The notes below the pieces were generated by a model, which saw only the letters and a list, made by a program, of their open reading frames with translations, was not told the DNA's origin and searched no databases. This document shows positions 14,349 to 34,700 of a stretch of DNA of 64,000 nucleotides, in pieces (the first letter of the stretch is position 1; each line of letters opens with the position of its first letter). Made by a program: the position numbers and the translations under genes. This stretch comes from Coleofasciculus sp. B1-GNL1-01. Lineage in GTDB: Bacteria; Cyanobacteriota; Cyanobacteriia; Cyanobacteriales; Coleofasciculaceae. The stretch lies in NCBI GenBank assembly GCA_040220235.1, contig JAVJTO010000164.1. One strand, written 5' to 3'.

Positions 14349-14460
14349 TTGTCATTTGTCATTTGTCATTTGTCATTTGTCATTCGTCATTTGTAAATTC
14401 TCTCCCCCATCTCCCCCATCTCCCCCATCTTCCTCATCTCCCTTCCCTGTTCCCTGTTCC
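14345..14460. repeat. STRR arrays: TCATTTG heptamers, CTCCCCCAT nonamers and TGTTCCC heptamers
   Basis: Directly visible tandem repeats; the last units encode the TrkA C-terminal tail. Confidence 0.9.
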
Positions 14461-15468: not shown

Positions 15469-16944
15469 ATGTACATTATCCAGGTTGCCTCTGAATGCGC
15501 CCCTGTGATCAAAGCCGGCGGCTTAGGGGATGTGGTATATGGTCTGAGTCGGGAATTAGAGATTCAGGGGCATTGCATTGAGCTAATTCTGCCCAAATAC
15601 GACAACATGCGCTATGACCACATCTGGGGACTCCATGATGCCTATATTAATCTATGGGTACCCTGGTACGGTGCAGCGATTCACTGTTCTGTCTATTGTG
15701 GTTGGGTTCATGGACGAGTCTGTTTCTTTATCGAACCTCATTCCCAGGATAATTTCTTCAATCGTGGCTGCTACTACGGTTGTGATGACGATAACATGCG
15801 GTTTGCTTTCTTTTGTAAAGCCACTTTAGAGTTTCTGCTTCAGAGTAATAAGCGTCCTGATGTGATCCACTGTCACGATTGGCAGACGGGTTTACTCCCA
15901 GTCATGCTGTTTGAGATCTATAAATATCATGGCATGGCAAATCAACGGATATGCTACACCATTCATAACTTTAAACACCAAGGAATGGGGGGAAGTGAAA
16001 TCCTGTGGGCAACCGGGTTGAATCGAGAAGGCTATTATTTTCAGGATGATCGCCTGAAAGATAATTTTAATCCCTTTGCCTTAAACTTTATGAAAGGCGG
16101 TATTGTTTACGCCAATGCGATAACGACAGTTTCTCCCCATCATGCCTGGGAAGCTCGGTTCACGCCCATCGGATGTGGGTTAGGTCATACATTACATTTA
16201 CATCAGGATAAGTTTACCGGAATTCTCAACGGCATTAATGATGATTTTTGGAATCCGGAACAAGACCGCTATATTCCCTATCACTACGCCCCGGATAGTT
16301 TTGAAGACAAAGCGAAAAATAAAAAAGCGTTGCGGGAACGGCTGTTAATTCAAGATGCTAATAAACCAATTGTGGCGTTTATTGGTCGTTTAGATGATCA
16401 AAAAGGTGTTCATCTTGTCCATCATGCTATCTATTACTCTCTGCACAAGGGCGCTCAATTCGTTTTGTTAGGGTCAGCAACAGCGGCGGCAATTAATTCC
16501 TGGTTCTGGCACGAAAAATACTACTTAAATGATAACCCTGATGTCCATTTGGAACTGGGCTTTAATGAGGAATTATCTCATTTGATTTATGCTGGAGCCG
16601 ATTTTATGCTAGTTCCGAGTAATTACGAACCCTGCGGATTGACTCAGATCATTGGCTTAAAGTACGGAACCGTGCCAATTGTGCGGAGTGTAGGGGGACT
16701 GGTCAATACCGTGTTTGACCGCGATCACGACTTGACTCATCCCATGGACAAACGCAATGGATATGTATTCAGTCACACCGATTACTATGCGTTAGAATCC
16801 GCGATGGATCGGGCGTTGGGATTGTGGTATGACTATCCAGAAGAGTTCCGTAAACTGGCGATTCAAGGTATGGCGTATGATTACTCGTGGAGTGCTTCGG
16901 CATCTAAGTATGTGAAAATCTATGACATGATCCGACATCAATAG
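15469..16944 (+). CDS. glgA: Glycogen synthase (GT5)
   Basis: SECAPVIKAGGLGDVV, IHCHDWQ, GRLDDQKG, PSNYEPCGLTQ; GAGGA Shine-Dalgarno upstream. Confidence 0.96.
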   Translation: MYIIQVASECAPVIKAGGLGDVVYGLSRELEIQGHCIELILPKYDNMRYDHIWGLHDAYINLWVPWYGAAIHCSVYCGWVHGRVCFFIEPHSQDNFFNRGCYYGCDDDNMRFAFFCKATLEFLLQSNKRPDVIHCHDWQTGLLPVMLFEIYKYHGMANQRICYTIHNFKHQGMGGSEILWATGLNREGYYFQDDRLKDNFNPFALNFMKGGIVYANAITTVSPHHAWEARFTPIGCGLGHTLHLHQDKFTGILNGINDDFWNPEQDRYIPYHYAPDSFEDKAKNKKALRERLLIQDANKPIVAFIGRLDDQKGVHLVHHAIYYSLHKGAQFVLLGSATAAAINSWFWHEKYYLNDNPDVHLELGFNEELSHLIYAGADFMLVPSNYEPCGLTQIIGLKYGTVPIVRSVGGLVNTVFDRDHDLTHPMDKRNGYVFSHTDYYALESAMDRALGLWYDYPEEFRKLAIQGMAYDYSWSASASKYVKIYDMIRHQ

Positions 16945-17499: not shown

Positions 17500-17811
17500 T
17501 TGGAAAAAGTCAAAAAATTATTGTCTATTGCTTTTACTCTGAGCGATACATTCTTTCTTACTGAAGTTCCCCCAGCCGAAGAGCAAACCAAGAGCGATCG
17601 CGCTCTCAATAATACCATTGCCTTAGCTGGGATTGTGCTGGGGATTAGCGGCTTAACCGCTACCGCAATTTCCGTACAACAACCCCAGCCGAAATCCTAC
17701 ACCGATGTTTCGTTTTTATCCTCACCCATTTTTATCTGGAGTCTCGGTTTAAGCTTTCCGTTTATCATCTTCCTCTTCTATCGCTTCATCGCTGATCTGT
17801 GGCGACGTTAA
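17500..17811 (+). pseudogene. Probably 5'-truncated C-terminal fragment of a two-TM hypothetical protein
   Basis: EQTKSDRALNNTIALAGIVLG followed by two TMs; weak TTG start in a region of mobile debris. Confidence 0.4.
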
Positions 17812-17874: not shown

Positions 17875-19605
17875 CTAAAAAGGCTGAAAAAGAATAGAAA
17901 AGGTAATTCCATTATCTTGTAGAGAACCGCCTTCATCTTCAACGCTATTGAGGGGAATTCCCCAATACAGTTGTGCTGACCACGACGGATCACGTTGCCA
18001 CAACAGTCCTAACCCAAGACTGGCTAAGGTGTTAGGATTAGTCACCTCATCCTCGTGGTTCCAAACCGTGCCAATATCGAAAAACGGAGCAATTTGCACA
18101 GTTCCAATGCCCTCAGGTTGGCTGATAATCGGGAAACGAACTTCCACAGAACCAATAATTCCATTGTCAGCCACGCGCTGATTTTGGCGATACCCTCGCA
18201 CGGTATCAATTCCACCAATACTGAACTGTTCTAGCGGTAAGAGCGAATCATTCGACAGTTGCGCTCCCGCACGAGCAATAATGATACTATCAGCCCCTAA
18301 AGCCTGCACCCACTGAAACTGTCCCACCCAACTCATAAACCGCCCATCAGTACCCGTATCATTGATGGTGGCGTCAAACGCATCCAAGCCAAAACTAAAC
18401 TGCGATCGCGCGGCTAAGACGCGATCAGTGGAACGGTTAAGCCAGTCTTGACTAAACCGCACCACAGTGACTTTCGATTCCCCGTCTTCGGGTCCCAGGG
18501 AAAAGGAAAACGGGATATCATCCAGGACAAAGGTTTGGCTTTGACGCAAATCCAGGGACAAGGATAAGGCAAAGTCACTCGTCGGCGTATGGACAATTGG
18601 TTGGCGAAATCCCACAGACAAGGTTTCTGAGTTAGAGTTAATATCTAAGACTGAAAACGGATCTTCAACAATATCACTATCGCTACGGTTATAGCTGAGA
18701 CTTAACGTACCATCCCTGGGATTGAGAGGGATTTCATAGCTCAGACTATACTGATCCACCCCTTCGGTTATGCCATAATCGGCACTGATGCGATCGCCTA
18801 ATCCCAATAGATTCCGATTCTCTATTCTCACTGTTCCCCCCAAGGAACCGACACTGGGAGAGTCTCGATTCTCTATAGTCACAGAACTCATCCAAGGTTT
18901 TGCCTCTTCTATCTCTAGGGTTAACACACTGGTTCCAGCCATGGTTCCTGCTGATAACTCGGCTTGAATTTGATCGAGTACCGGATCAAGTTGCAGCAGT
19001 TGCAGCGCTTCCTCTAAGCGACGAATATTCACCGGGGTTTGCGTCGCCAACTGAATCCGCGATCGCACGTAATCATCCCGCAAACGCTCTAATCCTTGAA
19101 TATCAATGCGTTCAAGGCTCCCTTCAACCACCTGAATGCTCACCACACCATCGGTAATATCCTGAGACGGGAGAAATGCACCGGAAGTGGTGTAGCCATT
19201 GTCTGTATATAACTCGGTAATCGCCGTGCGAATCGCTAAGAGTTCTTCAAACGAAGCATTTTGACCAATAAAGGGTGCAACAGCATCTTGCAATTGTTCT
19301 GAGGAAAAAACCGTACTCCCTAATACCTCAACTCGTTCAACCGTGACATTAACCTCCACATCGGGTGATGGCGTCAGAAAGGGTTCTGGGGTGGGTGTGA
19401 GGGGGGGAAGTGATGGAGGCATCTCTGGGGGCGTCGTCGGCAAAGAAGGCAGATTGGGACGAGTGGGTTCCAGGATACCCGGTGGAATCTCTGGAGTCGT
19501 TTGGCTCATCGATGGCAAGTCTTGAGCTAAGGCGATACCACTCCAGCTCAAGTACACCAGATTTAAAGCCCAAAGAAACCGTTTAAACATAAACCAGTAG
19601 CGCAA
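17875..19605 (-). CDS. ShlB/FhaC/HecB-family TpsB outer-membrane transporter
   Basis: Signal peptide, Pro-rich linker, POTRA (YTDNGYTTSGAFLP), VRGY motif (DTVRGYRQN) and C-terminal Phe; start may be the ATG at 19590. Confidence 0.95.
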   Translation of the reverse strand: MRYWFMFKRFLWALNLVYLSWSGIALAQDLPSMSQTTPEIPPGILEPTRPNLPSLPTTPPEMPPSLPPLTPTPEPFLTPSPDVEVNVTVERVEVLGSTVFSSEQLQDAVAPFIGQNASFEELLAIRTAITELYTDNGYTTSGAFLPSQDITDGVVSIQVVEGSLERIDIQGLERLRDDYVRSRIQLATQTPVNIRRLEEALQLLQLDPVLDQIQAELSAGTMAGTSVLTLEIEEAKPWMSSVTIENRDSPSVGSLGGTVRIENRNLLGLGDRISADYGITEGVDQYSLSYEIPLNPRDGTLSLSYNRSDSDIVEDPFSVLDINSNSETLSVGFRQPIVHTPTSDFALSLSLDLRQSQTFVLDDIPFSFSLGPEDGESKVTVVRFSQDWLNRSTDRVLAARSQFSFGLDAFDATINDTGTDGRFMSWVGQFQWVQALGADSIIIARAGAQLSNDSLLPLEQFSIGGIDTVRGYRQNQRVADNGIIGSVEVRFPIISQPEGIGTVQIAPFFDIGTVWNHEDEVTNPNTLASLGLGLLWQRDPSWSAQLYWGIPLNSVEDEGGSLQDNGITFSILFQPF

Positions 19606-19994
19606 AGGTCATCAGTTGACAAGGATGCAGAGAAACCCCGGACTGTTGATCGCAAAAGGGAGAGGGTAAGCAGCAGAGAATAAACGGTTGATTCGAGTAT
19701 CGGGTTGTCAGAGCCGTTAATCCTGTCCTAATTATTCTGACGATCGCTATCAAGCATTTAGTGAGCCAAAACCTCAATTGATCCCCCATAGCATTCATAC
19801 TCGGTAATATTCTTTTATTTCTTGTTCTACTTTCAGCATCAGTGACCGGAAGAAATACAATATAGTAGCAGCTTAGGAGACGCTTTGTCCCCTGTTTTTA
19901 TCCGTTGAGAAACCCAAAAACCCTCAAATTCAGACTCCCCAGTTCAGATCAAAATTTTATAAAATAGAGTTAATTGTTATCATTGTTCCGAAAA

Positions 19995-22589
19995 ATGTCC
20001 CACGGTTGGCAGTTTTGGCGTCGATTTATTGGATTATCTTTAGCCAGCCTTGTCTTTTGTATCAGCTTTCATCCCTGGTCCACTGGGCAAGCCGAACCCG
20101 CCACAGAAATTCAACAACAGCAATTGCTCACACCGACTTCTGAAAAACAGCTTGTGTCCAAGGGAATTGCATCCTATCAAATCGGAGAATTTTCCCAAGC
20201 CATTAACTTATGGGAACAAGCCTTACCTCAAATTACCGACGAAAATGATCGAGCAATTGTTCACAATAACCTGGCTTTAGCCTATCGGCAAACGGGGGAA
20301 CTGGCTCAGGCGATCGCGCACTGGGAAAAGGCGATCCAAATTTACCAGGCTTCACCGGATGCCGAAAACCAGAAACGCATCGCTGGGCTATTAACCGAAC
20401 AAGCCCAAGCTTACAATGATTTGGGACAACATCCGCGAGCGATTACTCTCTTAGAGTCAGCCATTGAACTCGCCACTAAATACCCAGATTCCTTAGCAGA
20501 AGCTGCCGCTCAAGGCGCTTTAGGCAATGCCCACTGGAGTTTAGGCAACTATGATCAGGCGATTTCCGCCCACAAACAGAGCCTCAAAATTGCCCGCGCA
20601 TTGAATAATAACAGTTTTATCGCCACGGCTTTAAATAACGTGGGGAATGTTTATGTCAGCAGAGCCAGCCGATCCAGTTATCAGGCGCAGGTGGCTGAGT
20701 TAGAAGGAGATGTGCAAGAGGCGACGCGCTTAACCCAGGAGGCGCTTCAGGATTGGACACAAGCCAGACTATTCTTCGAGCAAAGTCTAGAAACGGCGCA
20801 AGCCTTAGGAAGTTTGACCGAAATTAAAGCCTTAATGAATTTAAATCGCTGGGTGATTAGTCGTCATTCAGCCAATGTTGCTGACAATTCAGCCGAACCC
20901 TTGAGTGAGGGTGATCAGGCGTTTCTCCAAAGCAATTGGCAACGAGTCAGAGAACTCCTCCCTGGAATACCTGATTCCCGACAGAAAGCCTATACCCTGA
21001 TTCACCTAGCCGAGAGTTTTCAACAGATCGAGTCAGAGGCTTCAACTCAGGAGTCGATCCAGCTTTTAACCCAAGCTTTAACAGTAGCCCAAAAAATAGG
21101 CGATGCCAAAGCCCAATCCTTTGCCCTAGGGAGCTTAGGACAATTGTATGAATCAGCCGGAGACTACAGCACGGCGATGAATTTAACCCGCCAAGCTGAA
21201 TTTAGCGCCCAGCAAATTCAATCCTCTGATAGTTTATATCGCTGGCAATGGCAAGCGGGGCGGATGCTGAAAGCTAGAGGTAACATCGCCTCAGCCATTT
21301 CTGCTTATGAAGGGGCGATCGCGACGTTGCAAAATATTCGCGGCGATTTAGTCACCAATAAAGAGCTACAACTGGATTTCCGGGAACAGGTTGAACCCAT
21401 TTATCGAGAATTAATTGATTTGCTCCTCAATGCTTCCAGTAGCGATTTGAGCGAAGTCAACTCCCAAGAAACGGTTTCACCCCTCAAAGAGGTAATTGAT
21501 ATCGTCGAACTGCTCAAACTGGCAGAGTTGGAAAACTTTTTCGGCGATGAATGTGTGCAAGTCGCCAAAGATAAAGCTCAAAATGAGCAGGGGTTAGCCG
21601 ATGCCAATGCTGCTGTTATCTATTCAATCATTTTGAATGATCGCACCGAAATGATCCTGCGATCGCCTGATGGTTCCCTAAAAAACTATCCTATCCCTAT
21701 CAGCAAGGAAGATATGGAAGTCGAGATCGAACAGCTACGCTACTTTCTGGAACTACGCACCACAGAACAGTATATTCCTCAAGCAAAAGAAATTTATAAT
21801 CGGCTGATTCGTCCCATGGAAGCTGATCTAGCCGTCATGCAACCCAAGACATTAGTCTTCATCAACGATGGCGTCTTGCGTCAGATCCCCATGAGTGCGC
21901 TGCACGATGGTCAAAACTTTTTGATTGAGAAGTATCCCATTGCGATTACTCCCAGTCTGTCATTAACCACCAGCCAACCGTTAGATCACAATCAGTTAAG
22001 AGCGCTGAGTCTGGGTTTAACTATTGCCAAACCTCCCTTTGCCCCCCTGACGAATGTAGAAGCTGAGTTAAATGTGGTTGAAGAAATCTTAGGCGGGACA
22101 GAGTTAATTAATCAGGAATTTACATTCTCAAACTTACAAGACAAACTACGACGCAAAAATTTTCCCGTGGTTCACATGGCAACCCATGGCAAATTTGGTG
22201 TTGATTCCCAGAGTACCTTTATCCTCGGTTATGATCAACAAATTAGTATTGAAGAACTCGACAATCTATTGCGGTCTCGCGGTCGTCGAGAAGCGGTGAA
22301 ACTGCTCACCTTGAGTGCTTGCCAAACCGCAACGGGAAATAATCGTTCCGCATTAGGAATTGCGGGTGTCGCTGTTCGAGCAGGTGTAGAGAGTGCAGTA
22401 GCGACATTATGGTATATCAATGATGAAGCAACTGTACCGCTGATTGCCGAATTTTATAGCCAACTGCGCCAACCGGATATCACCCGGGCAGAAGCGTTAA
22501 GACAGGCGCAGCTAAAGATGATTTCTAATGTCAATTATAATCATCCAGCCGTTTGGTCGCCGTTTATTCTAATTGGCAATTGGAGTTAG
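19995..22589 (+). CDS. Exported TPR + CHAT (caspase-like, clan CD) protease
   Basis: N-terminal hydrophobic signal, several TPRs, YRWQWQAGR, intact HMATHG and LSACQT dyad, C-terminal HPAVWSPFILIGNW; alternative TTG start at 19974. Confidence 0.93.
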   Translation: MSHGWQFWRRFIGLSLASLVFCISFHPWSTGQAEPATEIQQQQLLTPTSEKQLVSKGIASYQIGEFSQAINLWEQALPQITDENDRAIVHNNLALAYRQTGELAQAIAHWEKAIQIYQASPDAENQKRIAGLLTEQAQAYNDLGQHPRAITLLESAIELATKYPDSLAEAAAQGALGNAHWSLGNYDQAISAHKQSLKIARALNNNSFIATALNNVGNVYVSRASRSSYQAQVAELEGDVQEATRLTQEALQDWTQARLFFEQSLETAQALGSLTEIKALMNLNRWVISRHSANVADNSAEPLSEGDQAFLQSNWQRVRELLPGIPDSRQKAYTLIHLAESFQQIESEASTQESIQLLTQALTVAQKIGDAKAQSFALGSLGQLYESAGDYSTAMNLTRQAEFSAQQIQSSDSLYRWQWQAGRMLKARGNIASAISAYEGAIATLQNIRGDLVTNKELQLDFREQVEPIYRELIDLLLNASSSDLSEVNSQETVSPLKEVIDIVELLKLAELENFFGDECVQVAKDKAQNEQGLADANAAVIYSIILNDRTEMILRSPDGSLKNYPIPISKEDMEVEIEQLRYFLELRTTEQYIPQAKEIYNRLIRPMEADLAVMQPKTLVFINDGVLRQIPMSALHDGQNFLIEKYPIAITPSLSLTTSQPLDHNQLRALSLGLTIAKPPFAPLTNVEAELNVVEEILGGTELINQEFTFSNLQDKLRRKNFPVVHMATHGKFGVDSQSTFILGYDQQISIEELDNLLRSRGRREAVKLLTLSACQTATGNNRSALGIAGVAVRAGVESAVATLWYINDEATVPLIAEFYSQLRQPDITRAEALRQAQLKMISNVNYNHPAVWSPFILIGNWS

Positions 22590-22779
22590 TGTCATTGGTC
22601 ATTGGTCATTGGTCATTTGTCATTCGTCATTCGTAAGGGAACAGGGAACAGGGAACAGTAAGCATTTTGAGTTAACTTCCCTATCTCCCTCATCTCCCTC
22701 ATCTCCCTCATCTCCCTCATCTCCCTCATCTCCCTCATCTCCCCCAGCTCCCCCAGCTCCCCCAGCTCCCCCAGCTCCC
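22590..22779. repeat. STRR arrays (GTCATTG, GGGAACA; nonamers CTCCCTCAT and CTCCCCCAG)
   Basis: Tandem repeats between the convergent CHAT and DUF928 genes. Confidence 0.92.
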
Positions 22780-22895
22780 TACCCACCACAAGACTTATTC
22801 AGCAGCCCCTAAAATAGGGAGCAGGGTTACATGATGTATCCCTACTCCCGGTATTGCACTAATGTTCACGCTTTACACCGCTTTCTCTTCGACAG

Positions 22896-23756
22896 TCACG
22901 GTCTTTTAGCAATGTTAAGCCGTTCTTGCTGCGTCACTTGAGTCAAGCCAACTTGCTCCAGCAGAGCCAGGAAATCATCGTTGGTAACTAGCTCATTAGA
23001 ATTCGCGGTTTCAACTTTGGACATTGCAGCTAAGGCATCGTACCAAAGCCCAGCTTCAGCATAACTCCAAGCGCGATCGCGCCACACCTGTGTTGGCACA
23101 TTGTTCTTAGTCGGAGGAGTTGATAGCCGTTGTGGTTCTAAAGCGGCTGGTGTGGATACCCGCTCAATCCAGCTAATGAATACGGGATTAGCCGATGGAT
23201 GCTTGGTATTACAAACCAGAGTGACTGACCATTTGTAGGTTCGTCCAGTTTGCAATTCTGGTCGGTCTTTGGGAAGTTGCAACTGGATCATCCCGGCTTG
23301 GGGAGAGTCGATTTGTTTCTCAAAGAGCGGTTCCGGAACTCCGGGTTCCACGAGAGCAAACCGCATCGGTACACCTTCAGGTACAGGCTGTGATAAGTAC
23401 CAGAAAAAGGTAGGATGACCGGATTTGGTTTGTCCAGCATACTCCTCGGATGGGATCAACAATGTGACTAAATCATTGGTTAACGATTGGCGACAGCCGC
23501 GTGAACCTGAGCCTATTGTCCGCCGTGGATTAGTTGCCACGGGTGGTATATATTGTTTAGACGAACGATGGGTTGACGTTTTGTTTAACTCTGCGTTGGC
23601 AGGTAGATCGTTCCAAATCGAGGTCAGAATTTCTAAATTCTTCGATGACGAAAAAATCCGGGGTGCAGGTAGGTCTAAAAAGCCGAACATTTGCAGGGAA
23701 ACAATTGAAGCTGTCCCGGCAATGATGGTTACTAATTTTTGCCGAGTGGTGTTCAT
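22896..23756 (-). CDS. DUF928-domain protein (exported)
   Basis: RRTIGSGSRGC, HPTFFWY, YKWSVTLVC, YAEAGLWYDAL, LLEQVGL; N-terminal hydrophobic stretch. Confidence 0.88.
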   Translation of the reverse strand: MNTTRQKLVTIIAGTASIVSLQMFGFLDLPAPRIFSSSKNLEILTSIWNDLPANAELNKTSTHRSSKQYIPPVATNPRRTIGSGSRGCRQSLTNDLVTLLIPSEEYAGQTKSGHPTFFWYLSQPVPEGVPMRFALVEPGVPEPLFEKQIDSPQAGMIQLQLPKDRPELQTGRTYKWSVTLVCNTKHPSANPVFISWIERVSTPAALEPQRLSTPPTKNNVPTQVWRDRAWSYAEAGLWYDALAAMSKVETANSNELVTNDDFLALLEQVGLTQVTQQERLNIAKRP

Positions 23757-23912
23757 GAGATTAAGTCCTTCGTTTCATAAGGGTCTTTTTACAAAGGGTT
23801 GGGATGTGATGCACCTACTCCAGCTATGGAAAAATTTTGCCTGAAGACTTTTGGACTCAATAGCGCTCTTGGCTGACAAAATCTAAATCATTATACATGG
23901 CATTTTGAACAA

Positions 23913-25847
23913 CTACAGCAAAATTTGATAAACGGCAGTTAATTGTTCGCGCCCTTTGAGTCTCACCTGACCGATTTGTTTCGTGGGGAATTGATTGTGT
24001 AGATGCTGGTATGTTTCTTCATTGATTAAAATCCGGCAAATTCCTCCATCGAGAGTTTTATCGTAACTTTCTAATCGAGCCGCTACATTTACGCTATCTC
24101 CTAGGGTGGTGTAGTCAAGCCGTTGAGCATTCCCCAAGCTACCTGTGACGACATCCCCTGTGGCAATTCCCACGCGCATTGCTGTTTGCGGATAGCCTTG
24201 ACGTTGCCATTCTTGATTGAGGGTTTGCAGTTTTTGTGCCATGGCTAACGCACAGTTTACCGCTGCGATCGCATCCTGGTCAATTTCGGCGGATGTCGTG
24301 CGTTTAATCGGTACACCAAACACCGCCATAACTGCATCTCCGATAAACTTATCCACAACACCGCCATGATCTAGCACCGTTCCCGCCATGGCATCCATAT
24401 ATTGATTCAGCCAAGCCATCAGCACTTCCGAACCCATATTTTCTGCTACTGTACTAAACCCTTTCAGGTCTGAGAACAGAACCGTGGCAGTCATCTTCTG
24501 ACCACGTAGACGTCCTTCTTTGAGAAGTTGTTCGCGATCGCGCCAAATTGCTTCGGCGATTTGCTTGGTGACATGGCGACCGAATAAATTCATAACGGTG
24601 TGTCGCTCTTCACGCTCGAAGTTACCGATGTACCCTGTCGTTGCTGTAGCGGCACCCAATAACGCCAAAGCTGGGGGAATCACAGGAATCCACCAACTGC
24701 TGATGATAAAGGCTAAGTAGCTGCTCCCGACCAGACCGACAAGTGCGAACAAAAGGCTAATTACTGTCCAACGAGGGAGTAATTTAGCTAAACCTCCTGC
24801 ATCTCGCAACACCCAACACAGGGTTGCACCCGTCAAAGACCAGAGAAAAATCCAGATCCCTTCGATTGGTTCCGACCAAGTTTTCAGTCCAGAACGCCCT
24901 TCTAGAGCTGAACTCAGCAATTGACTAATCATGTTAGCCTGAACTTCTATCCCAGGTGTGCGCTCTTGGGTGGCAATTTTATCACCACTATAGGGGGTGT
25001 AGAAGAAATCATTCAAGCTAGTTGCCGTTGCCCCAATTAAAACGAGGCGATCACGCATTAAGTCTGGTGGTATCCGGTCTTCAAGTACCTCTGTCAATGA
25101 CACCCTGGGAAAGGTACGAGCCGGACCCTTATAGTTTAACAAAATCTGGTATCCCCCGTCATCAGCACTCACATAACCACCATCATTTGCGGAAAAAGGT
25201 TGAAACGTCCCCTTTCCTAAATGAAAAATCAGGGGATTCGTTTGGGAAGGTTGAGATATGATGTCTTGCTCTGCTAAATACATCAATGCCAGTCTCATAC
25301 CAAAAGAGACGGTGACTTGATCGTCGTTTTCAACCATATAAAGCAATGATCGACGCAGCTTACCATCCGCATCAATCACCACGTTATTAAACCCAACTTG
25401 TTCGCGTTGATCTAGGACGGGTGGGGGAGCTACGCTAGCGCTGGGATCTTGCTCGTTAATTTTTTCTATCCCGATTAAATTGGGAGTTGTTTCAAAAACA
25501 TTGACTAATTCGTCATGACCGGGCAAAACCGATAAATCTCGATACAGGTCAAGACCAATCACTCTCGGGTTTTGCGCTTTAATTTTTTTGAGAAGTTCAG
25601 CCAGGACATTATCCGGAATGGGCCACTGTCCGACTTTTTTTAGATCCGCCTCACTAATTCCCACAACCAGAATTCGTTCATCCACAGGTTCTTGAGGACG
25701 CCAACGAAAATATTGGTCAAGAGCAGCCCATTCCCAAGTCTGTAAAAAGCCGAGAAGTCGCAATAGAATAATGAGTCCAGCCACACCAGGAGCAACCGTC
25801 CAGACACCTCGCCCCGCCCAAATTTTTTGTTTAAGGTCTTTCCACAT
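23913..25847 (-). CDS. CHASE2-domain class III adenylate cyclase
   Basis: TM, CHASE2 (GQWPIPD, VIGLDLYRD, DADGKLRR, PGIEVQA), three TMs and a cyclase domain (LFSDLKGFS, DKFIGDAVM, DYTTLGDSVNVAARLE); the Lys/Thr specificity pair indicates ATP. Alternative start at 25907. Confidence 0.93.
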   Translation of the reverse strand: MWKDLKQKIWAGRGVWTVAPGVAGLIILLRLLGFLQTWEWAALDQYFRWRPQEPVDERILVVGISEADLKKVGQWPIPDNVLAELLKKIKAQNPRVIGLDLYRDLSVLPGHDELVNVFETTPNLIGIEKINEQDPSASVAPPPVLDQREQVGFNNVVIDADGKLRRSLLYMVENDDQVTVSFGMRLALMYLAEQDIISQPSQTNPLIFHLGKGTFQPFSANDGGYVSADDGGYQILLNYKGPARTFPRVSLTEVLEDRIPPDLMRDRLVLIGATATSLNDFFYTPYSGDKIATQERTPGIEVQANMISQLLSSALEGRSGLKTWSEPIEGIWIFLWSLTGATLCWVLRDAGGLAKLLPRWTVISLLFALVGLVGSSYLAFIISSWWIPVIPPALALLGAATATTGYIGNFEREERHTVMNLFGRHVTKQIAEAIWRDREQLLKEGRLRGQKMTATVLFSDLKGFSTVAENMGSEVLMAWLNQYMDAMAGTVLDHGGVVDKFIGDAVMAVFGVPIKRTTSAEIDQDAIAAVNCALAMAQKLQTLNQEWQRQGYPQTAMRVGIATGDVVTGSLGNAQRLDYTTLGDSVNVAARLESYDKTLDGGICRILINEETYQHLHNQFPTKQIGQVRLKGREQLTAVYQILL

Positions 25848-26144
25848 CTTATTTTTTAGCGCTCCTTGGTGGTTAGAAACCCAGCTCTCTCTCCTTACCT
25901 TATTCAAGGGCGAAGTAATTGGAACCGAAAAATTAGGTTTGAAGGAATAAATTATTACAAAAACTTTAAATTTAATGGCACTGAAATAAGCATTTTTTTA
26001 TCGCCCGAACCCTTGAACTACTGTAGGGTAGGCAATGCCCACCAGCATACCAGTCAGTGCCATTCAACTTTGAATTAGCGATCTGCGAAATATTACATAG
26101 GGATAATCATCCCTCAAGTGGGTTGGGTAAAACGATCGCGCAGC

Positions 26145-28226
26145 CTATTTCTCTTGCGATGCAGCCTGATAGCAGATTAAATCATCAGCATTCGCGATCG
26201 CGACCAGTTCTGGAGCCGTACCCACGATTACACGTCCATCAGACGTTACCATCATACCCTGAGCTTCTTGAATTGGGTCGCCGGGTTTCCAGAAACTGGG
26301 AGTTGAGGATTGAGAATTGACTGTTGGCGCAGTAGCTTGTTGTCCAGCATCGCCACTAATTCCCTGAACCTGAGTAACGGAATAGTTACCCTGTAACGGA
26401 TTATAGGGGTTATTCGGTAAACCCCCTGTACCTGTAACAATAAAGCTACCTTGCTCCTTATTGCGGTGGGTGAGGCAACTATCAGCAATCACTTGCTCTG
26501 GTGGCAAAAAATTGGTTGATAGTGGCGAGAGGGAATCTTGATTCAAATTCAGCGAGGCTATAAATAAATTACCAGCATCACCGCTACCCAATGCCTCGAC
26601 TGAAATATCCACTCGGTCATTGCCCCGAAATGGCTCAAACGAACCTGGGTTGCGACCTACAGCTGTCCCTTGACCACTGGAGAAAAAGTCTGCCAGAAAT
26701 ACGGGAGAGATAATGCTGATATTACCACCCCTGCCATCAACCGCATTTGCCAGAATATCACTATTTTCTAGGGCGATAAAAACATCGGAGTTAATTGTAA
26801 TATTGCCACCACCACCGATACTGTCGAAAACACTGGTACTAATCAAGCTACCATCGCGTAGACGAATATCTTCAGCCGTGATATCGATGTTACCTCCTCC
26901 TGCTTGATTTGAAGTAGCCGTAATTTCAGCTCCATCTCGAACTGTCAAATTTTCAGTTTGAATGGTTAGCTTGCCAGCATCACCCATCCCTTCACTGGAA
27001 ACAGCTAACCCACTCGGTCCCACAATTGGTGAGCTGCCACTTATCTCTACAGACTCAGAGGCGGTTACGGTTAAGTTGCCTCCCTCACCTCGAGCCGAGC
27101 CAAATGGCGTAACTATAGAACCCGTAGATATTCCAGCCCCATCTTGCACAATTAATCGCCTCGTGGTAATTCTCACGTCTCCTGCATTCCCATCACCAAA
27201 TGTGACCGCATTCAAGTTACTTGAAAAGCCATTGGCTGAAACACCAATTAGTTCTACAGACTCCGAAGCTGTTACATTCACAGTTCCAGCTGATACTGAT
27301 CCTAAGGTGATAGAGGAAATTTGAGCACCATCGGTGAGTCTTACCTGCCTGCCTTGTATTTGAATATCACCACTCCCAATATCAACACCTGTTCCGATGG
27401 GAGGTGGAAAAGGACCTAGATCAGTCACATCAATCGTAGCTTCTTGAGACAGGTGAATATCTTGGAAATTCTGAACATTTTCATAATTGAGAGCAAAACC
27501 ACGATTTGTGGATTGCAGATTGACCAAACTATTACCAGAAACACCTCCTACCTCAACCCGTCCTCCTGGCGCAGTCAGATCACCTCCCTCTAGCAGTACT
27601 TCACCCCCTACTAGAGCTAAACTTTTACCCGTCCGCACCTGAAGACCCACTGAATCTGAAATTGCACCCATTGTTCCGTCCGGACTAGCTTGAGAACGGT
27701 TAACTATCCGTCCTGCTGCGGTTCCAAATTGTAGTCCTACAGGAATACTCACAGTCAGCACAGGTGAGGCTATGCGGTCAGTGCTAAACTCTGTACCATC
27801 TTCAAATTTCAAACTATTTGCTGTACTTGCTACAAAGGAGCCACCAATGCTGAGGGAGGCATTGGAACCAAAGATAATGCCGTTGGGATTGAGGAGAAAG
27901 AGATTAGCATTACCGTTCGCTTTGAGCATGCCATCAATGTTTGAGATGGAATCGCCAGTCACCCGACTAATGACGTTTTGGACATCCAGGCTATTTTTGA
28001 AGAAGGCTGATCCATTGGTAGGTATGGAAAACTCGCGAAAGCTATGGAAGAGGTTCTCTCCGGCTTGATTTTCCCCAGTGATTGTAAAGTTAAGGTTATC
28101 GGCAGTCTTAACGTCGGTAGATAAACTTCCATCAGAGGCAATTTGCCCTTGAACTGACTTAACTGGAATTAAAATGAAGAAGACAATAGGTGGAACCAGC
28201 CAGAGTAAGTAATAACGTCGTTTCAT
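26145..28226 (-). CDS. Filamentous haemagglutinin-like TpsA exoprotein
   Basis: Signal peptide; TPS domain NLFHSF...NLFLLNPNGIIFG; G(N/D)AG beta-helix repeats; C-terminal TGTGGLP...EAQG cyanobacterial tail; AGGAG-like RBS region. Confidence 0.93.
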   Translation of the reverse strand: MKRRYYLLWLVPPIVFFILIPVKSVQGQIASDGSLSTDVKTADNLNFTITGENQAGENLFHSFREFSIPTNGSAFFKNSLDVQNVISRVTGDSISNIDGMLKANGNANLFLLNPNGIIFGSNASLSIGGSFVASTANSLKFEDGTEFSTDRIASPVLTVSIPVGLQFGTAAGRIVNRSQASPDGTMGAISDSVGLQVRTGKSLALVGGEVLLEGGDLTAPGGRVEVGGVSGNSLVNLQSTNRGFALNYENVQNFQDIHLSQEATIDVTDLGPFPPPIGTGVDIGSGDIQIQGRQVRLTDGAQISSITLGSVSAGTVNVTASESVELIGVSANGFSSNLNAVTFGDGNAGDVRITTRRLIVQDGAGISTGSIVTPFGSARGEGGNLTVTASESVEISGSSPIVGPSGLAVSSEGMGDAGKLTIQTENLTVRDGAEITATSNQAGGGNIDITAEDIRLRDGSLISTSVFDSIGGGGNITINSDVFIALENSDILANAVDGRGGNISIISPVFLADFFSSGQGTAVGRNPGSFEPFRGNDRVDISVEALGSGDAGNLFIASLNLNQDSLSPLSTNFLPPEQVIADSCLTHRNKEQGSFIVTGTGGLPNNPYNPLQGNYSVTQVQGISGDAGQQATAPTVNSQSSTPSFWKPGDPIQEAQGMMVTSDGRVIVGTAPELVAIANADDLICYQAASQEK

Positions 28227-28386
28227 AGGAGTAAGTGCTTTCTCGTAGACCTATTCTGAGTCTAACAACTCACACTTATAAAGGTTGAAAGCACAGATAG
28301 ACTTTGAACAGACGCCTTTAATTATTTGGATGGCTCATAAGGATTATGTTCAGGGCAGGGATTATTCGCATTTAATGCACATTGGT

Positions 28387-28578
28387 TCACCAACACCTCC
28401 CCCAAAATCGAATACAAAAATCTGAGGTAGTCGTATCCTCTATCTGCTGTTGAGGACTCACAGGCTGGTCTTGCCTAATTCTATTCTCCATGTTAGCATT
28501 CGCAGAAACAGGAGCTGCGCCAACTTGAGTAGAAAATGTTAAGCTGAGAGCGATCGCGGTAGATGCAACGAGTTTCAT
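28387..28578 (-). CDS. Small exported peptide precursor with a C-terminal Cys-bracketed aromatic motif
   Basis: 63 aa; GGAGA Shine-Dalgarno before the ATG; Sec-type signal MKLVASTAIALSLTFSTQVGAAPVSA; ends FCIRFWGRCW; co-oriented directly upstream of tpsA. Confidence 0.75.
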   Translation of the reverse strand: MKLVASTAIALSLTFSTQVGAAPVSANANMENRIRQDQPVSPQQQIEDTTTSDFCIRFWGRCW

Positions 28579-28763
28579 TTTTCTTTTCTCCGAGTAGATG
28601 TACGAACCTGTGAGCTTGGTGTGATTAACCTAGCCCTAAAATTTTGAGAGATAAATTGCTCTTGTCAGAGACTTTTTATTCAGTTGTTGGAGTTACCCTG
28701 TCAGTGGCGCACCCGATTAGTAGAAGTTTGAGAGAAATCTTTTTCTGCCACTGCTCTATAATT

Positions 28764-28807
28764 AAACTATAGCAAGAGAAAAGACAGAATCTGTGATCTT
28801 TATCAAA
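28764..28807 (-). promoter_or_regulatory. Putative class II CRP-dependent promoter for the peptide/tpsA genes
   Basis: TGTGATCTTTATCAAA at 28792-28807 matches the CRP consensus TGTGATCTAGATCACA at 13/16; minus-strand TG-C-TATAGT -10 box at 28771-28766, 20 nt downstream of the site. Confidence 0.55.
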
Positions 28808-29740
28808 GCTTCATTGAGAGTTCATACAGCCTTAATAAGTGCCTCTTATGGCTTAATTTTTCTTTACAGAAGTTCTGGAGTAAGGAGTACACCGAGGTTA
28901 CGGCGTTAGAGGCAATTAAACGTAATACCCAAAGCTGTAGACTATAGGCTATGACTGTAGTTGAACCGAAATACATTGGAAATACATCCTGGGTTTAGTG
29001 GTGTTTGAGTTACGGTTATCCGTTGAATCAGATTAAATTATTCGTCGAGCCGGATGGGACTTCTCTTTTCCGTCCAAGTGAGATATATCGATTCTTCGCT
29101 AGAGGGTTGCAACAGTGAAATCCTTATGGTGCATGGGTTGCTTTTTATTATTTTGTCAGAGTTTTTTAACAAAGTAAGGCTATGTTAAGAGTTGTAATGT
29201 AAGATTTGCTTATATTAAGGATTATGACGCAATACTTCGTAACATTAAACTTACTATAGAATTACTGACATGGTTTCGCTTCACATCTCCCACCCTACTG
29301 AGTTACAAGTAAGTAATTTTACTCAGCCTCCTGAAGATAGAACTCTTTCCCTGGCAGGTTGTTCCAGACATACCCCTCACATCTACATAGCGGGAAATTC
29401 CCATGAATCTTGCCCTTAAGTTTATTTTGGGCGGAAAGATACTCAACTCCATTGCCTTGATTGAGCAACATGCTTACCTTGAACTCACATCCACCCGCAT
29501 TAAAGATCTCAATCGTGAAAATTCGGTGAAAGAGAAGTCAACTCAGTCTCATCTGATAAACTGTGCAGCCATCTCAAGAGACTATTTTCCTAATGAGCCT
29601 CGAACCATAAATCGCTACAATCAAACTCTAGTAAGCATTTCAGTTACATCAGGTCACGCTGGTCTATTTACAAATCAAAAGGCTGAATAACTGCTAAAAG
29701 CCCTATATAATCAGTATTTCTCCACCCTATTGCTTATGAC

Positions 29741-29762
29741 ACACCGAGCGAAGCCGAGGTGT
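29741..29762. repeat. Small dispersed repeat (GAGCGAAG(C/T)CGA core)
   Basis: ACACCGAGCGAAGCCGAGGTGT; reverse copies at 31651-31672, 37734-37777 and 38332-38353, and a copy at 54378-54414. Confidence 0.75.
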
Positions 29763-29772
29763 TGCCTATTGC

Positions 29773-30768
29773 CTATTGCCCAGCGCGAAGCGCCGTATCT
29801 GGGAAATCGCTGAAAAGTCCATCAATTCCCAGCCGATAGAATTGCTGATACTCCAACTCAGGATTACCTTGATAGTCGGGGGCGAGAAAAACCTCTTCAT
29901 TGCGGAATGTCCAGCCATGAACCTGCAAACCCTGAGCATGAGCGTCATCGAGTAAGGAGGTAGGGGGTAATAAGTAACCATCTGCCCCCGTGGGTACAAT
30001 TAAACGTTTGTTAACCCCGATCGCATCTGCATAATCCGCAATTTCCCGTAACCCCTGAGGCGTTACCAGATCTCCATACGTCCGATTGCTATTGTCATGG
30101 TGTTGAGGATGAGCAATAAAATCGTAGGGTTGACCGATGTCGTTCACTAATTGTACCAAGGATACATCGGTGATTTGCTTCAGCGCTTTCAAGTTCGCCG
30201 TTTCAAAGGATTGGATGAACACAGGAGAATTGCGATCGCCCAATCCGTACTGGTTGAGGATAGTTACCAACGGTTCTTCTAACGAGAGTCCGATCGCGTT
30301 AAAGTAGGTGGGATGCTTGGTTTCTGGATAAATGCCAATCATGCATCCAGTAGCAGCACTTTGGCGTTGAACTAGCTCAATAATATCTACCAGAGTAGGG
30401 ATATCAAACAACCCATCGAATTCTGTCGAACGCAGGTGAGGTAATCGTTCTTTGACTCGTAGGGTTTTTAGTTCAGCCAGAGTAAAGTCCTCAGTAAACC
30501 AACCCGTGACAGTTTGCCCATCAATTATTTTAGTGGTTTGGCGATCTCGAAATTCTGGACGAGTCACCACATCGGTAGTACCCGAAATTTCATTTTCGTG
30601 ACGCGCCACCAATACCCCATCCTGTGTCATCACCAAATCGGGTTCAATGTAATCCGCCCCCATCCGTATCGCTAACTCATAAGCCGCGAGGGTATGTTCG
30701 GGACGATAGCCACTTGCGCCTCGGTGAGCAATCACCAAAGGACGGGAATTTTGGTCACGCGATCGCAT
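29773..30768 (-). CDS. Glycerophosphodiester phosphodiesterase
   Basis: [50 protein letters not shown]; start re-called to the ATG at 30768. Confidence 0.93.
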
Positions 30769-30919
30769 CCTTATATATATAGCACTACGAGGATAGGTTA
30801 GGAGATCAGTTGCTCCCAAGGGAGAACGCTCCCCCAGCTCCCAGACGTGCCATGGCACGTCTGGAACATTGGCTTCCCCCGCTCCCCCTCACCACAGCAC
30901 TTATTCAGCAGCCCCTAAT

Positions 30920-31785: not shown

Positions 31786-34700
31786 CTAAAATCGCCGCCG
31801 ATATTCAATAATCGCCCGACTATCCCCGGAAAAATCAGTCCCCCCCCGCAATAACACATTATCATTCAGCCGATAACGCAGATTGTATTGGAACGGTTCC
31901 CCAGTCGTTAACTCCTTCAACACCGACACCGAGAAATTTTGCGTGATATCAACCCCCGCCTCAGCCGCAAATCCCAAACTCGAAGCCCGTTCTTCATCAT
32001 CGGGAATAATCGTCGGAAATAGACGAAACTCACTCAACGGTAACGCATCCGCAATAAAATTACCCACAGGTCCCAAAACCGCTGAACCCGCCAAATTCGC
32101 TAACCCCAACGTACTATCCCCTCGCCCTAAGGTATCCACAAACCCCCCACCCAACAGCGCCACAATTTCCGCTTCGCTGCGTGCAGGTGTACTTGTCAAT
32201 TCCAACCGATCCTCCAGTTGAGACGCCGGTCCTTCCACCTGGGCAACAACCCGAACCGTTTGCACTGCGCCCAACTCAAAATCAGGCGCATCAGCAATTT
32301 CAGCGGACTCAGTGTCTGTAGGTAGTCGCCGTTGGGTGGCTTCGGCAACTGATGTGACTAAACGCACATCTAAATAGGGATCAAGTCCTTGACCGGAAAT
32401 AAATTCCGCTGTATTTTCATACCCCCGTGCCAACCGGAATTGAGTGGTAAATAAATTCACCTGACCCCGTGTCAATTGAATCACCCCATCGGGTCTCAAA
32501 TCTTCTAAGGTTCCATTCACGGTTAGAGTCCCTTCGGCAAGGAAATTCAAAATCGGTGCCTTTCTAATTTGAATATCTTCGACCAGGGTAATTTCTAAGT
32601 CATTAAACTCGAAGACAATACCCTCCTCCGTGTCACCCCCAGTTCCTACAGCAGTTCCCGCACCGCCATCTTGCTCAGGTAGTGGTACAGTACCATCAAC
32701 TAAGTTAATTTCACCACCAATCGTGGGATTTAATGCTGTCCCCGTCAACACCACTTGACTTTCTTGGATCTTACCTCTGTATAGGGCTTTCAGGTTAATT
32801 GCTAGTTCCCCAATAGTTACGGTGAGTGGATTTTGCTGAGGAATGGGCTGGGAGATGGGTAGGGTGCCGGCGGCGGTAATTTGACCGCCACCATAGTTCG
32901 CCGTCAAGCTATTCACATCAACCCGGTCAAAGTTGAACTCAATTTCTCCCGTCACATCCTCAAGCGGTTCGGGTAGGGCTTGCGAGGCAATCGTCGCCCC
33001 TTCTACGATCGCGGTTCCCTGTGCCCTGAGTCCTCTCGGACGACCTTCTTCTTGATCAAAGCTGCCTTGAATATCCAAATTAACGCTTCCAGTTCCCCCA
33101 TTCCAGACAACTTGCTGGCGGGTAAGGATATTTAATAAAGCCAACCCCTCGTCTTCCACATTCACACTTAAACGGAGTTCCTCACTCTCAGGGGCAGTGG
33201 CGTCTGGGACGGGTAACTGGTAAGGGATTCTCCCCTGAACTACTAATTGAGGTTCACCCTCCTCTGTGAGTATACTTTGGGCTAAGAACCGCAATTGGGC
33301 ATCACTGTAACTGAAACTCCCCTGCAAGGTTTCAATCGCTTCTTGATTCAGCGTCGCATCGGTTACCATGACTGATCCTCTGGCTTGGGGATTCTCTAGA
33401 CTTCCCGAAAGCGTCGCCGTGGCGTCCAGATTGCCACTAAAAAAGCCGATCGCAGGCGGTAAATCCACCACGTCTCGGATCGGGGCAATGGGAACGTTTT
33501 CTAGGCGTAACTGACCCGATTGCGTCTCGCCACCGATAGTCCCGGAAAATGTAGCAAAACTCTCTCCCGATCGCAAGGTAACTGGAAGCAGCGTCAGTAC
33601 CCCCTCTTGGAAGCTGCCTTGAAGCGTTGCCTGGTTAACCTGATAATCACCCCATTCCCAGTCTTGTCCCTCGATGTCAAATTTGGCATTAATTCCCGAT
33701 GCCAACGACCCACTAATCCGTACCGTACCGCTAAACGTGCCATCTAACTCGTCTAAATCCGGCAGAATCTCTGCTTCTTCCTCCGCCTGTTGCCGTTGTT
33801 GCAGTAGGGTTTCAATTTCCGATAGACGGCGCAGTTGGGTGTGTAATTTGGCTTGGGGCATTCCCACTTGGGCGATATCCAAGGGTGCGGTGGGGGTGGT
33901 GGGTGGTGTTGTGGTCAAGTCGATTAACTGTAAACCCGCGACTAGGGTTTCCAGTTGTCCCTGTTCGATATTCAGCGTCCCTTGAAACTGGGGACCCGTG
34001 GGTGTTTGTTGAATTCGACCTGATAGGCTATACAGATTTTCCCCTGGTGTCGCTTCCCCTGGCAAACGACTGCCAAAAATTGGACCGGTTAATTCCACTT
34101 GGTCTAACGCCACGTCAAAGGTATTCAAATTAATTGCGACTTCCCCAGAAATATCACCCACCAAGGGTTGAGTCTGTAGGGCGACAGGCACCGGGGCAAT
34201 ATCTTTAATCAAGGCGATGGGAATATTTTCTGTATTCACCCGTAGCACATTACCCTGGCGCGTCCCGGTGGCGATCGCCTCGTCGCGACGAATGTTAAAG
34301 GAAACAGGAAGATAATCCGATCCCAGGTCTACTTCAATCTGATCGGTCTCACCTTGTAGATCGAGTTCCACACCTTCTCCGGGTATCACCCTCACTGGAC
34401 CAGCGAGTTCCTCTTCAAAGGTCAACCCACTGACGGCAAAGTCCTCCAGTTCAACATTCCCCTGAACACGAGGATTCGTCACTGTCCCGGCAATCGTACC
34501 CGTAAAATCCGCCAATCCCGCCACATCCACATCCGCTGCGGCTGGGGGTAAATACGCCGAGAGTTCGGTTAACTCTAAGTTATTTGCTGCCACATCTAAA
34601 TTAAAATTCCCCACCGCCCCAATTCCTTGATCTAACTGGGCGGGATTCACCCCAATAAACCCACTAGCAGAGAGTCCCTCGGCGGTTAACTGTTGCAGGT

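Follow-up and report, generated by a model that had tools for sequence, protein, structure and literature searches.

A short peptide gene and tpsA share a hypervariable cassette at a CHASE2 cyclase locus of Coleofasciculus: a possible pherotype system

RESULTS AND DISCUSSION

In a 64,000-nucleotide stretch of the mat-forming cyanobacterium Coleofasciculus sp. B1-GNL1-01 (assembly GCA_040220235.1, contig JAVJTO010000164.1; here, the window), six contiguous open reading frames (ORFs) at 17875..28807 encode, by Pfam domains, a TpsB transporter, a TPR-CHAT protease, a DUF928 protein, a CHASE2-cyclase, and a two-partner secretion (TPS) protein, TpsA, and include a short ORF of 63 amino acids (aa). 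All six are real genes. The short ORF is a peptide gene, its variable end and the 5' part of tpsA form one cassette of 1.5 kb, and the linkage of peptide and tpsA is fixed. We propose, with the chances evenly balanced, that peptide and TpsA are an allele-specific signal-receptor pair (a pherotype) whose state is relayed via the TpsA tail, TPR-CHAT, and DUF928 to the CHASE2 cyclase. An initial annotation of this DNA, which described a candidate protease-gated peptide signalling system, was partly right and misassigned the receptor.

A peptide gene with a constant leader and a variable core

The 63-aa ORF is considered a real gene because all eight other genomes of the genus and 4 of 43 further genomes from the family contain a match at E < 0.01 ahead of tpsA, and because 43 homologs were found in databases. 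Codons 1 to 47 are nearly fixed, and the last 10 to 16 residues (the core) are variable; the 23 genus-type peptides carry 21 distinct cores behind a leader that is 90% identical. The last 12 residues hold on average 3.4 aromatic residues and a net charge of +1.4. Two or more cysteines occur within the last 16 residues of 39 of the 43 homologs. A terminal cysteine pair was nevertheless ruled out as a defining trait, as 4 of the 43 have no cysteine and one distant core holds a single one. Genus-type precursors have an acidic site before the core, which is not kept in distant precursors, many of whose cores are proline rich and uncharged. A lipobox-like motif is present in some of the distant precursors; precursors of the window type lack the lipobox cysteine.

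The peptide had no Pfam or NCBIfam match, and curated precursor models of ribosomally synthesized and posttranslationally modified peptides, bacteriocins, and pheromones were matched at cutoff by 0 of 12 and 0 of 9 peptides, with weak matches to the signal region only. No paralog was found in its own genome by blastp, tblastn, or phmmer. Across 401 genomes of the phylum, the peptide profile recovered its own genome and three weak matches; distant precursors do not match this profile and were found by synteny only. In a cluster atlas, the best matches of the peptide (0.81, a cluster named "Osc7112_2153 family") and of DUF928 (at most 0.83) were both under the lead threshold, and the cluster name was not found in the literature searched.

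A sharp-edged hypervariable block

Among eight loci of the genus, mean pairwise nucleotide identity was 94% in the peptide leader, 66% in the core, 58% in the intergenic DNA, 76% in tpsA codons 1 to 370, 87% in codons 371 to 693, and 92 to 94% in the cyclase, DUF928, CHAT, and tpsB genes. The variable block is sharp edged, running for about 1.5 kb from about position 28450 (core start) to about 26950 (tpsA codon ~425), so that the peptide contributes its last ~15 codons. Genomes G000 and G017 were 57 to 75% identical within the block and mostly 95 to 100% identical in the genes outside it. G022 and G017, which share a core, were 99 to 100% identical inside the block and 89 to 99% identical outside; as identity inside exceeds that of the flanks, this comparison points to recent exchange of the block. 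TpsA proteins of pairs with the same core were 96% (G022/G017) and 92% (G021/G019) identical, compared with 73 to 89% for differing cores. Likewise, core similarity was correlated with that of the variable region of TpsA in 12 loci (Mantel rho 0.32, P = 0.016); no such relation was seen for the TpsA tail or the leader. Residues 177 to 427 of TpsA ranged from 59 to 99% identity among the eight loci, with a mean of 68% over mature residues 150 to 400; the C-terminal part (266 residues) averaged 91%. This conserved end, followed by a cyclase gene, also ruled out a polymorphic toxin of the contact-dependent inhibition type. Peptide alleles coexist, since several sequences branch from one leader at 28427-28430 within single sequencing runs (X8 and X16).

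Peptide linkage across a TpsA clade

In a quick IQ-TREE phylogeny of 128 TpsA N-terminal regions, for which only Shimodaira-Hasegawa-like approximate likelihood ratio test (SH-aLRT) supports were computed, the window TpsA fell into a clade of 33 rows from several families (SH-aLRT 99). A signal-peptide ORF lies upstream of tpsA in 29 of these rows, that is, in all 29 that could be assessed, although the rows include near-copies and do not represent 29 independent events; the other four have less than 300 bp of upstream DNA. The view of the initial annotation that the peptide belongs to the system is supported. Sixteen of the 29 peptide-linked loci had been retrieved by TpsA alone. A search with TpsA only, in which five candidates per genome were scored and clade members will have been missed, gave six loci in three other families, and all six have an upstream signal-peptide ORF with a short, mostly cysteine-closed end rich in proline and aromatic residues. 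A TpsA fragment run over 401 genomes of the class matched only its own gene; with four candidates scored per genome, this is not informative on absence. Outside the clade, a candidate signal-peptide ORF (hydropathy filter and eye) preceded 2 of 54 loci, and none preceded the 41 other TPS ORFs of the window's own genome.

Two genomes, G888 and G158, each carry two tandem peptide-tpsA units with differing cores and thus have duplicated peptide and tpsA as one unit, and at locus L093 two peptide genes stand ahead of one tpsA. By these sequence comparisons, linkage alone accounts less readily for the association across families and for the tandem duplications than for the pattern within the genus.

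Other arrangements were also seen. At L078:5702-15816 (G096), four tandem tpsA genes have a peptide gene at the first only. Signal-peptide ORFs with other types of cysteine-containing ends precede out-of-clade tpsA genes at L096:2116-2307 and L131:658-909 and are possibly independent peptide-TpsA pairings; both tree rows of L131, one of which was checked, are labelled as peptide linked and lie outside the counted clade. The ORFs L125:2985-3299 and L156:60-320, just upstream of out-of-clade tpsA genes, resemble Nif11-type leader precursors. Small ORFs upstream of out-of-clade tpsA at L111:2793-3137 and L145:2762-2998 have very cysteine-rich C termini and no signal peptide.

Predicted binding of the core to TpsA

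TpsA was modelled as one beta-helix to about mature residue 530, with a predicted local distance difference test (pLDDT) score mostly above 90 up to residue 470 and a low-confidence tail that is predicted to fold poorly on its own. Its fold group is that of HMW1, HxuA, and EtpA (PDB 2ODL and 4RT6 are among the fold matches), and no solved complex of a TpsA with a short peptide was seen among these matches. The two tail cysteines are more than 90% conserved in 77 TpsAs.

A complex of TpsA mature residues 1 to 500 with peptide residues 26 to 63 scored 0.90, compared with 0.02 for the best of three controls. The benchmark mark for such complexes was reached by 116 of 157 solved pairs and 2 of 215 mismatched pairs, and it applies only roughly here, as our own alignments were used. 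Three runs gave 0.90, 0.93, and 0.02, with contact agreement of at least 22% and partner pLDDT of at least 36. In the model, peptide residues 51 to 63, that is, the variable core, lie on alternate residues of five TpsA strands and on adjoining loops, and the predicted binding face comprises TpsA residues 186-191, 300-306, 329-343, 363-375, and 399-408. The 35 predicted interface positions were more variable than the rest of residues 150 to 410 (heterozygosity, 0.51 versus 0.28; P = 0.0001; 13 genus-type loci), as they were among 29 clade members (0.61 versus 0.37). They make up 14 of the 30 most variable positions, where 4 would be expected, and the excess persists after Gly, Ala, Val, Ile, and Leu positions are dropped. 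The model thus supports binding of the core to TpsA; it demonstrates neither binding nor allele specificity.

The initial annotation had the processed peptide act as a ligand of CHASE2, which fits poorly with these data. The CHASE2 domain is 87 to 98% identical (mean, 92%) among eight loci with mostly unrelated cores. As CHASE2 is conserved across differing cores, while the TpsA face varies with the core and the model docks the core on TpsA, the likely cognate receptor is TpsA rather than CHASE2. That peptide and TpsA form a cognate pair is in our judgment quite probable.

A common module as putative relay downstream of TpsA

The putative relay is not restricted to this locus. In the window's own genome, 11 of 25 DUF928 genes lie in a full quartet with CHASE2, CHAT, and TPS genes, in agreement with the initial annotation, which stated that these genes often co-occur in cyanobacteria. 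Among the 33 long TpsAs of this genome, 12 carry a C-terminal CHAT fusion where the tail would otherwise be. The unfused proteins number 21; a CHAT gene lies no more than 6 kb from 15 of them, and 18 have a C-terminal tail that two cysteines close. By analogy with proteins of the same fold group, the TpsA tail is likely a periplasmic anchor and a part of the relay. TpsA, TPR-CHAT, DUF928, and CHASE2 are thus a widespread module, and the peptide sets the window copy apart. Only passing mentions of the four-gene module were found in the literature; the available portions of two papers mention only a DUF928-CHASE2 neighbourhood and caspase-CHASE2 fusions (PMC5587647, PMC8195603).

The CHAT domain (PF12770, E = 1e-57) has both residues of the dyad, His738 and Cys783, as the initial annotation stated. 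Its active site is intact, and so is that of the cyclase. The best fold match of the DUF928 model was MtxA (PDB 4Z29; E = 2.7e-5, 12% identity), and sequence searches with the CHAT domain and with the DUF928 profile gave no match to a solved structure. The cyclase domain is nearest to CyaB among solved structures and has CyaB's Lys and Thr at positions where the guanylate cyclase Cya2 differs. We take these positions to determine the substrate, and because of them the locus cyclase should make cyclic AMP (cAMP). Three checked distant copies hold a CHASE2 histidine kinase and not a cyclase, and at kinase-linked loci (L073:10277-11356, L074:10821-11759, L075, L077, and L078:1677-2780), the Pro/Gly/Arg motif of DUF928 is repeated four to about eight times. 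Elsewhere, four tandem DUF928 genes (G000:C50:21698-25765) have no CHASE2, CHAT, or TPS gene within 4 kb.

Proposed mechanism and alternative explanations

In the proposed pherotype relay, the peptide would be exported, trimmed, and presented or released. Its variable core is predicted to bind one beta-helix sheet of TpsA and the flanking loops. TpsA would pass through TpsB and stay anchored by its disulfide-closed periplasmic tail, as HMW1, HxuA, and CdrA suggest; on peptide binding outside the cell, the tail may engage TPR-CHAT, as gene fusions and gene neighbourhood indicate. CHAT would then switch DUF928-CHASE2 by a cut for which the tail and the Arg/Gly-rich DUF928 motif are the likeliest sites and the peptide a less likely one. 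By sequence, this locus would put out cAMP, whereas distant copies have a histidine kinase at this step, and cAMP-CRP may raise peptide transcription, depending on lineage and strain. Given a cognate pair, we expect that peptide occupancy of TpsA probably controls CHASE2 output, and action of the peptide between cells seems to us similarly probable. The initial annotation had invoked quorum or contact sensing; self- or density-sensing now appears more likely, as part of one envelope signalling unit.

Several observations weigh against the proposed relay. There is no evident route across the outer membrane for a Sec-exported peptide, and the distant precursors with a lipobox-like motif would be tethered. 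Adjacent DNA moved as a block co-varies without function, so that patterns within the genus cannot separate co-adaptation from hitchhiking; moreover, the Mantel correlation is modest, and cores that begin alike sometimes go with different TpsA groups. One of the three complex runs failed, the fold of the peptide itself is uncertain, the complex mark is also reached by near relatives of true partners, so that the model does not tell alleles apart, and the interface includes loops, which vary anyway. Most quartets lack a peptide, so a peptide is dispensable for the relay. In G050, G036, and G030, the run of peptide, tpsA, cyclase, and DUF928 genes has no adjacent CHAT or tpsB. Finally, one cassette of G016 (L049:83-2893) has no relay gene alongside and is either an orphan cassette or a product of mixed assembly; both G016 cassettes begin 83 bases from a contig end and may derive from mixed strains.

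Some of these points suit other explanations. The peptide could be a cap acting in cis, which binds the TpsA of its own cell in the periplasm or during export and silences or masks the groove, the signal being its loss or its displacement by a foreign ligand. Both proteins have Sec-type N termini and would meet in the periplasm, the locus has no dedicated exporter, lipobox-like precursors exist, and the co-variation and the complex model fit equally well. However, a cap acting purely in cis does not readily explain why 23 genus-type peptides have 21 cores or why cassettes are exchanged, and the two peptide genes before one tpsA at L093 also argue against it; we regard it as unlikely, if still worth keeping in mind. 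Lipobox-like precursors would equally suit allele-specific adhesion under inside-out control, in which a tethered peptide is gripped by the TpsA of another filament and CHASE2/cAMP sets CHAT, which cuts the TpsA tail and releases it. This would follow the logic of CdrA, a protein whose periplasmic tail is cut by LapG according to the available part of PMC5422565, and the TpsA fold is that of the HMW1/EtpA/HxuA group. Yet at 693 aa TpsA is short for an adhesin, the window-type precursor lacks the lipobox cysteine, and the variable outputs of CHASE2 (cyclase or kinase) are more in keeping with the terminal receptor of a relay than with a fixed controller, which makes adhesion quite unlikely.

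A constant leader with a variable C terminus is also the pattern of polymorphic toxins, as described in the accessible text of PMC3482391, and the aromatic, cationic, often disulfide-closed core might be an antimicrobial that harms non-kin and is sequestered or reported by TpsA as a cognate sensor or immunity protein. We consider this improbable, since cores are only ~10 to 16 residues long, many distant ones are proline rich and uncharged, neither orphan arrays of cores nor small immunity genes were observed, and the partner is wired to a sensor module. Maturation of the peptide by CHAT in the periplasm, with direct binding of the product to CHASE2, would use parts that are all plausibly periplasmic, an intact dyad, and the acidic site before the core in genus-type precursors, and rhizobial CHASE2 cyclases do respond to a protein signal (PMC13001267, as far as available). 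The conservation of CHASE2 across loci with unrelated cores, the loss of the site in distant precursors, and the need of the rhizobial signal for an outer membrane receptor (PMC7529298, in the part available) render it very improbable. That there is no functional pair at all, TpsA diversifying at the surface under phage or grazer pressure and the peptide end hitchhiking, has the least to recommend it and is barely credible to us. Block exchange would account for co-variation within the genus, but the linkage spans several families whose precursors no longer align, tandem duplications copy both peptide and tpsA, and the cores keep shared features and a modelled interface.

Promoter, CRP box, and expression of the peptide gene

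A plausible CRP box at 28792-28807, with one mismatch, heads the run as the initial annotation claimed, although CRP-like sites are not above chance across the window (3 found versus 1.84 expected; 27 of 100 shuffles reach as many); within the 450-bp upstream stretch, the chance of such a box is about 0.013. A TAN3T element lies 20 to 22 bases downstream of it, and the available text of PMC2633013 gives the cyanobacterial CRP consensus and CRP-activated promoters with a spacing of about 22 bp to TAN3T. The -10 element is retained in all nine loci of the genus, whereas the box is intact in four and broken in five. All eight peptide genes of family f19 are preceded by CRP-like boxes, one perfect and seven in tandem 22 bp apart, with no TAN3T at that spacing. 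No box was found in G036, G010, G096, both G158 units, L098, or L100, and G050 has one site with two mismatches. The window's own genome encodes a cyclic nucleotide-binding CRP protein (C55:93046-93786), presumably of the SyCRP1 type. Two further one-mismatch sites in the window, at 15781-15796 and 32353-32368, are both coding and consistent with chance.

By these motif scans, control of the peptide by CRP is a recurrent trait, but the conserved core does not include a closed cAMP loop. The cAMP-CRP feedback loop advanced in the initial annotation was ruled out as a general feature, given that the box is intact in 4 of 9 genus loci, that the window scan found none ahead of the divergent CHAT/tpsB pair, and that three distant copies hold a kinase. 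Likewise, the scan of other loci that it had recommended, for signal-peptide ORFs with a terminal cysteine pair and for CRP boxes, had a mixed outcome: signal-peptide ORFs recur, but neither the cysteines nor the box is constant.

In RNA run X8, contig depth over the peptide gene was ~3 x 10^4 to 7 x 10^4, compared with 300 to 1500 in the flanks, with a step just downstream of the predicted -10 element. This is a weak hint of expression, as five of six RNA runs had a flat profile and genes cannot be ranked by the depth of contigs. None of the RNA runs examined contained the core allele of the window itself.

Comparison with known systems

Peptide pherotypes are known from ComQXPA of Bacillus subtilis and, in similar form, from staphylococcal agr. 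The locus would work like such a system and has parts in common with NsrA-CyaK-Clr and with CdrAB/LapG, but it lacks features that define each of the three. In ComQXPA, the polymorphic block comprises the signal peptide gene and the 5' end of the receptor gene (comQ-comX-5'comP), the downstream signalling genes are conserved, and several alleles may share one sample (PMC6334282, available in part). Here too, a precursor gene adjoins a receptor gene, by prediction, in a co-polymorphic block. In contrast, no part is homologous: the variable partner is TpsA, a two-partner secretion beta-helix at a diderm outer membrane and putative receptor, rather than the sensor domain of a histidine kinase, and the conserved membrane sensor CHASE2 lies outside the variable block. 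The precursor has a Sec-type leader, and no modifying enzyme or ABC exporter (ComQ, AgrB, or a peptidase ABC exporter) was found among the ORFs and Pfam matches of the locus. As to the positive feedback of pherotype systems, CRP-like boxes occur in 4 of 9 genus loci, in 8 of 8 of family f19, and in none of six others, and G050 has the one site with two mismatches.

In Sinorhizobium meliloti, the CHASE2 adenylate cyclases CyaK, CyaD1, and CyaD2 are switched by a protein via the outer membrane receptor NsrA and read by the CRP-family protein Clr (PMC7529298, PMC13001267, both as far as available). Here too, the genome encodes a cAMP receptor protein along with an adenylate cyclase of class III that bears CHASE2. 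However, NsrA is a beta-barrel and its signal a host ribosomal protein, whereas the only barrel of our locus is TpsB, and the accessible text describes no TpsA, CHAT, DUF928, or self-encoded polymorphic peptide in that pathway. The locus satisfies two-partner secretion (type Vb), with an N-terminal TPS domain and beta-helix in TpsA and a POTRA/ShlB-type TpsB. CdrA, HMW1, and HxuA, of the same fold group, have a periplasmic C-terminal anchor, which is disulfide closed in HMW1 and HxuA, and CdrA is cut there by a periplasmic protease; the beta-helix of HxuA binds a protein ligand. These are adhesins or a haem scavenger controlled from inside, and none is reported in the available part of PMC5422565 to bind a co-encoded peptide or to signal inward. 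A LapG-type protease and LapD are absent by Pfam from the locus, which has a clan CD TPR-CHAT protease and a CHASE2-cyclase instead. In the mtx cluster of magnetotactic bacteria, exported MtxA is followed by a CHASE2 cyclase gene (PMC4439547), although MtxA is only 12% identical to DUF928 and the portion available mentions no TPS, CHAT, or peptide gene.

Nothing relevant to a TpsA acting as a peptide receptor, or to pherotypes in cyanobacteria, came up in the literature searched, which leaves out most subscription papers. In that literature, neither a peptide identity signal in a diderm bacterium nor a two-partner secretion protein as an inward-signalling receptor was found described, and the system would be both. 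For an envelope module that is widespread yet unstudied, and for CHASE2 sensors with poorly known inputs, it offers a concrete ligand that can be synthesized. A strain-specific signal would bear on the sorting of filaments in mats; bundle-forming cyanobacteria show quorum-like behaviour whose sensory mechanism is stated as unknown (PMC13594678, part available). More tentatively, and with the chances somewhat against it, filamentous cyanobacteria may operate peptide pherotypes that span both membranes, with dozens of exchangeable peptide alleles read by matching TpsA surface receptors resembling leucine-rich repeat receptors, with the two-partner secretion pore as conduit and the caspase-like protease as amplifier, and the peptide-less quartets may be a receptor array for other surface ligands. 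If true, such an array would name the input side of CHASE2 sensors.

Locus layout and flanking sequences

The features of the locus are listed in Table 1. The six genes and their domains, as well as the shared orientation of the peptide, tpsA, cyclase, and DUF928 genes on the minus strand, were correctly given in the initial annotation; TPR-CHAT, on the plus strand, is convergent with DUF928 and divergent from tpsB. As to the statement of the initial annotation that all products are exported or membrane bound, the export signals of the peptide, TpsB, and CHAT were judged by eye from the N termini, and a hydropathy scan with a window of 19 residues picked out TpsA, DUF928, and the cyclase alone. 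TpsB has eight paralogs in its own genome.

Table 1. Features of the peptide-TpsA-CHASE2 locus in the window
Feature	Position	Strand	Basis
TpsB, ShlB/FhaC/HecB outer membrane transporter with POTRA_2	17875-19605	-	Pfam
TPR-CHAT, clan CD protease (His738/Cys783), signal-like N terminus	19974-22589	+	Pfam, residue reading
DUF928 protein; N-terminal hydrophobic segment, conserved Pro/Arg/Gly-rich motif at ~residues 71-88, predicted Ig-like and helical fold	22896-23756	-	Pfam, model
Membrane receptor with CHASE2 and a class III adenylate cyclase domain; homologs begin at Met21	23913-25907	-	Pfam, alignment
TpsA, 693 aa; TPS domain and predicted continuous beta-helix to ~residue 557	26145-28226	-	Pfam, model
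Conserved C-terminal tail of TpsA, closed by Cys584/Cys685	26148..26543	-	Alignment, model
Hypervariable cassette; peptide core, intergenic DNA, and 5' ~425 tpsA codons	26950..28450	-	Sliding window, 8 same-genus loci
63-aa prepropeptide; conserved codons 1-47 (signal-like N terminus and pro region), variable aromatic-rich core with Cys55/Cys62	28387-28578	-	Homologs
Likely -10 element of the peptide promoter	28764..28771	-	Kept across the 9 loci of the genus
CRP-like box with 1 mismatch to TGTGA-N6-TCACA; varies within the genus	28792..28807	-	Motif scan

The named records nearest to the locus are from Coleofasciculus. None of the conclusions depends on G005, which is an unpublished genome. 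A generic scan of the window for promoters and terminators gave counts at or below chance. Upstream of the peptide promoter, strain identity also drops at 29000-29800 (mean, 57 to 85%), and a 95-aa ORF at 29403-29690 without a Pfam match is possibly an insertion remnant. Farther out lie a glycerophosphodiester phosphodiesterase gene (29773-30858, minus strand; Pfam) and a 1923-aa ORF (31786-37557, minus strand) that we assume from its translation to be TamB-like. On the other side, a 103-aa two-helix membrane ORF (17500-17811, plus strand) is convergent with tpsB and is preceded by an ORF at 15469-16944 (plus strand), presumably glycogen synthase-like. Short intergenic tandem repeats of 7 and 9 bp, at 14345-14442 and, between CHAT and DUF928, at 22591-22780, resemble cyanobacterial short tandemly repeated repetitive sequences.

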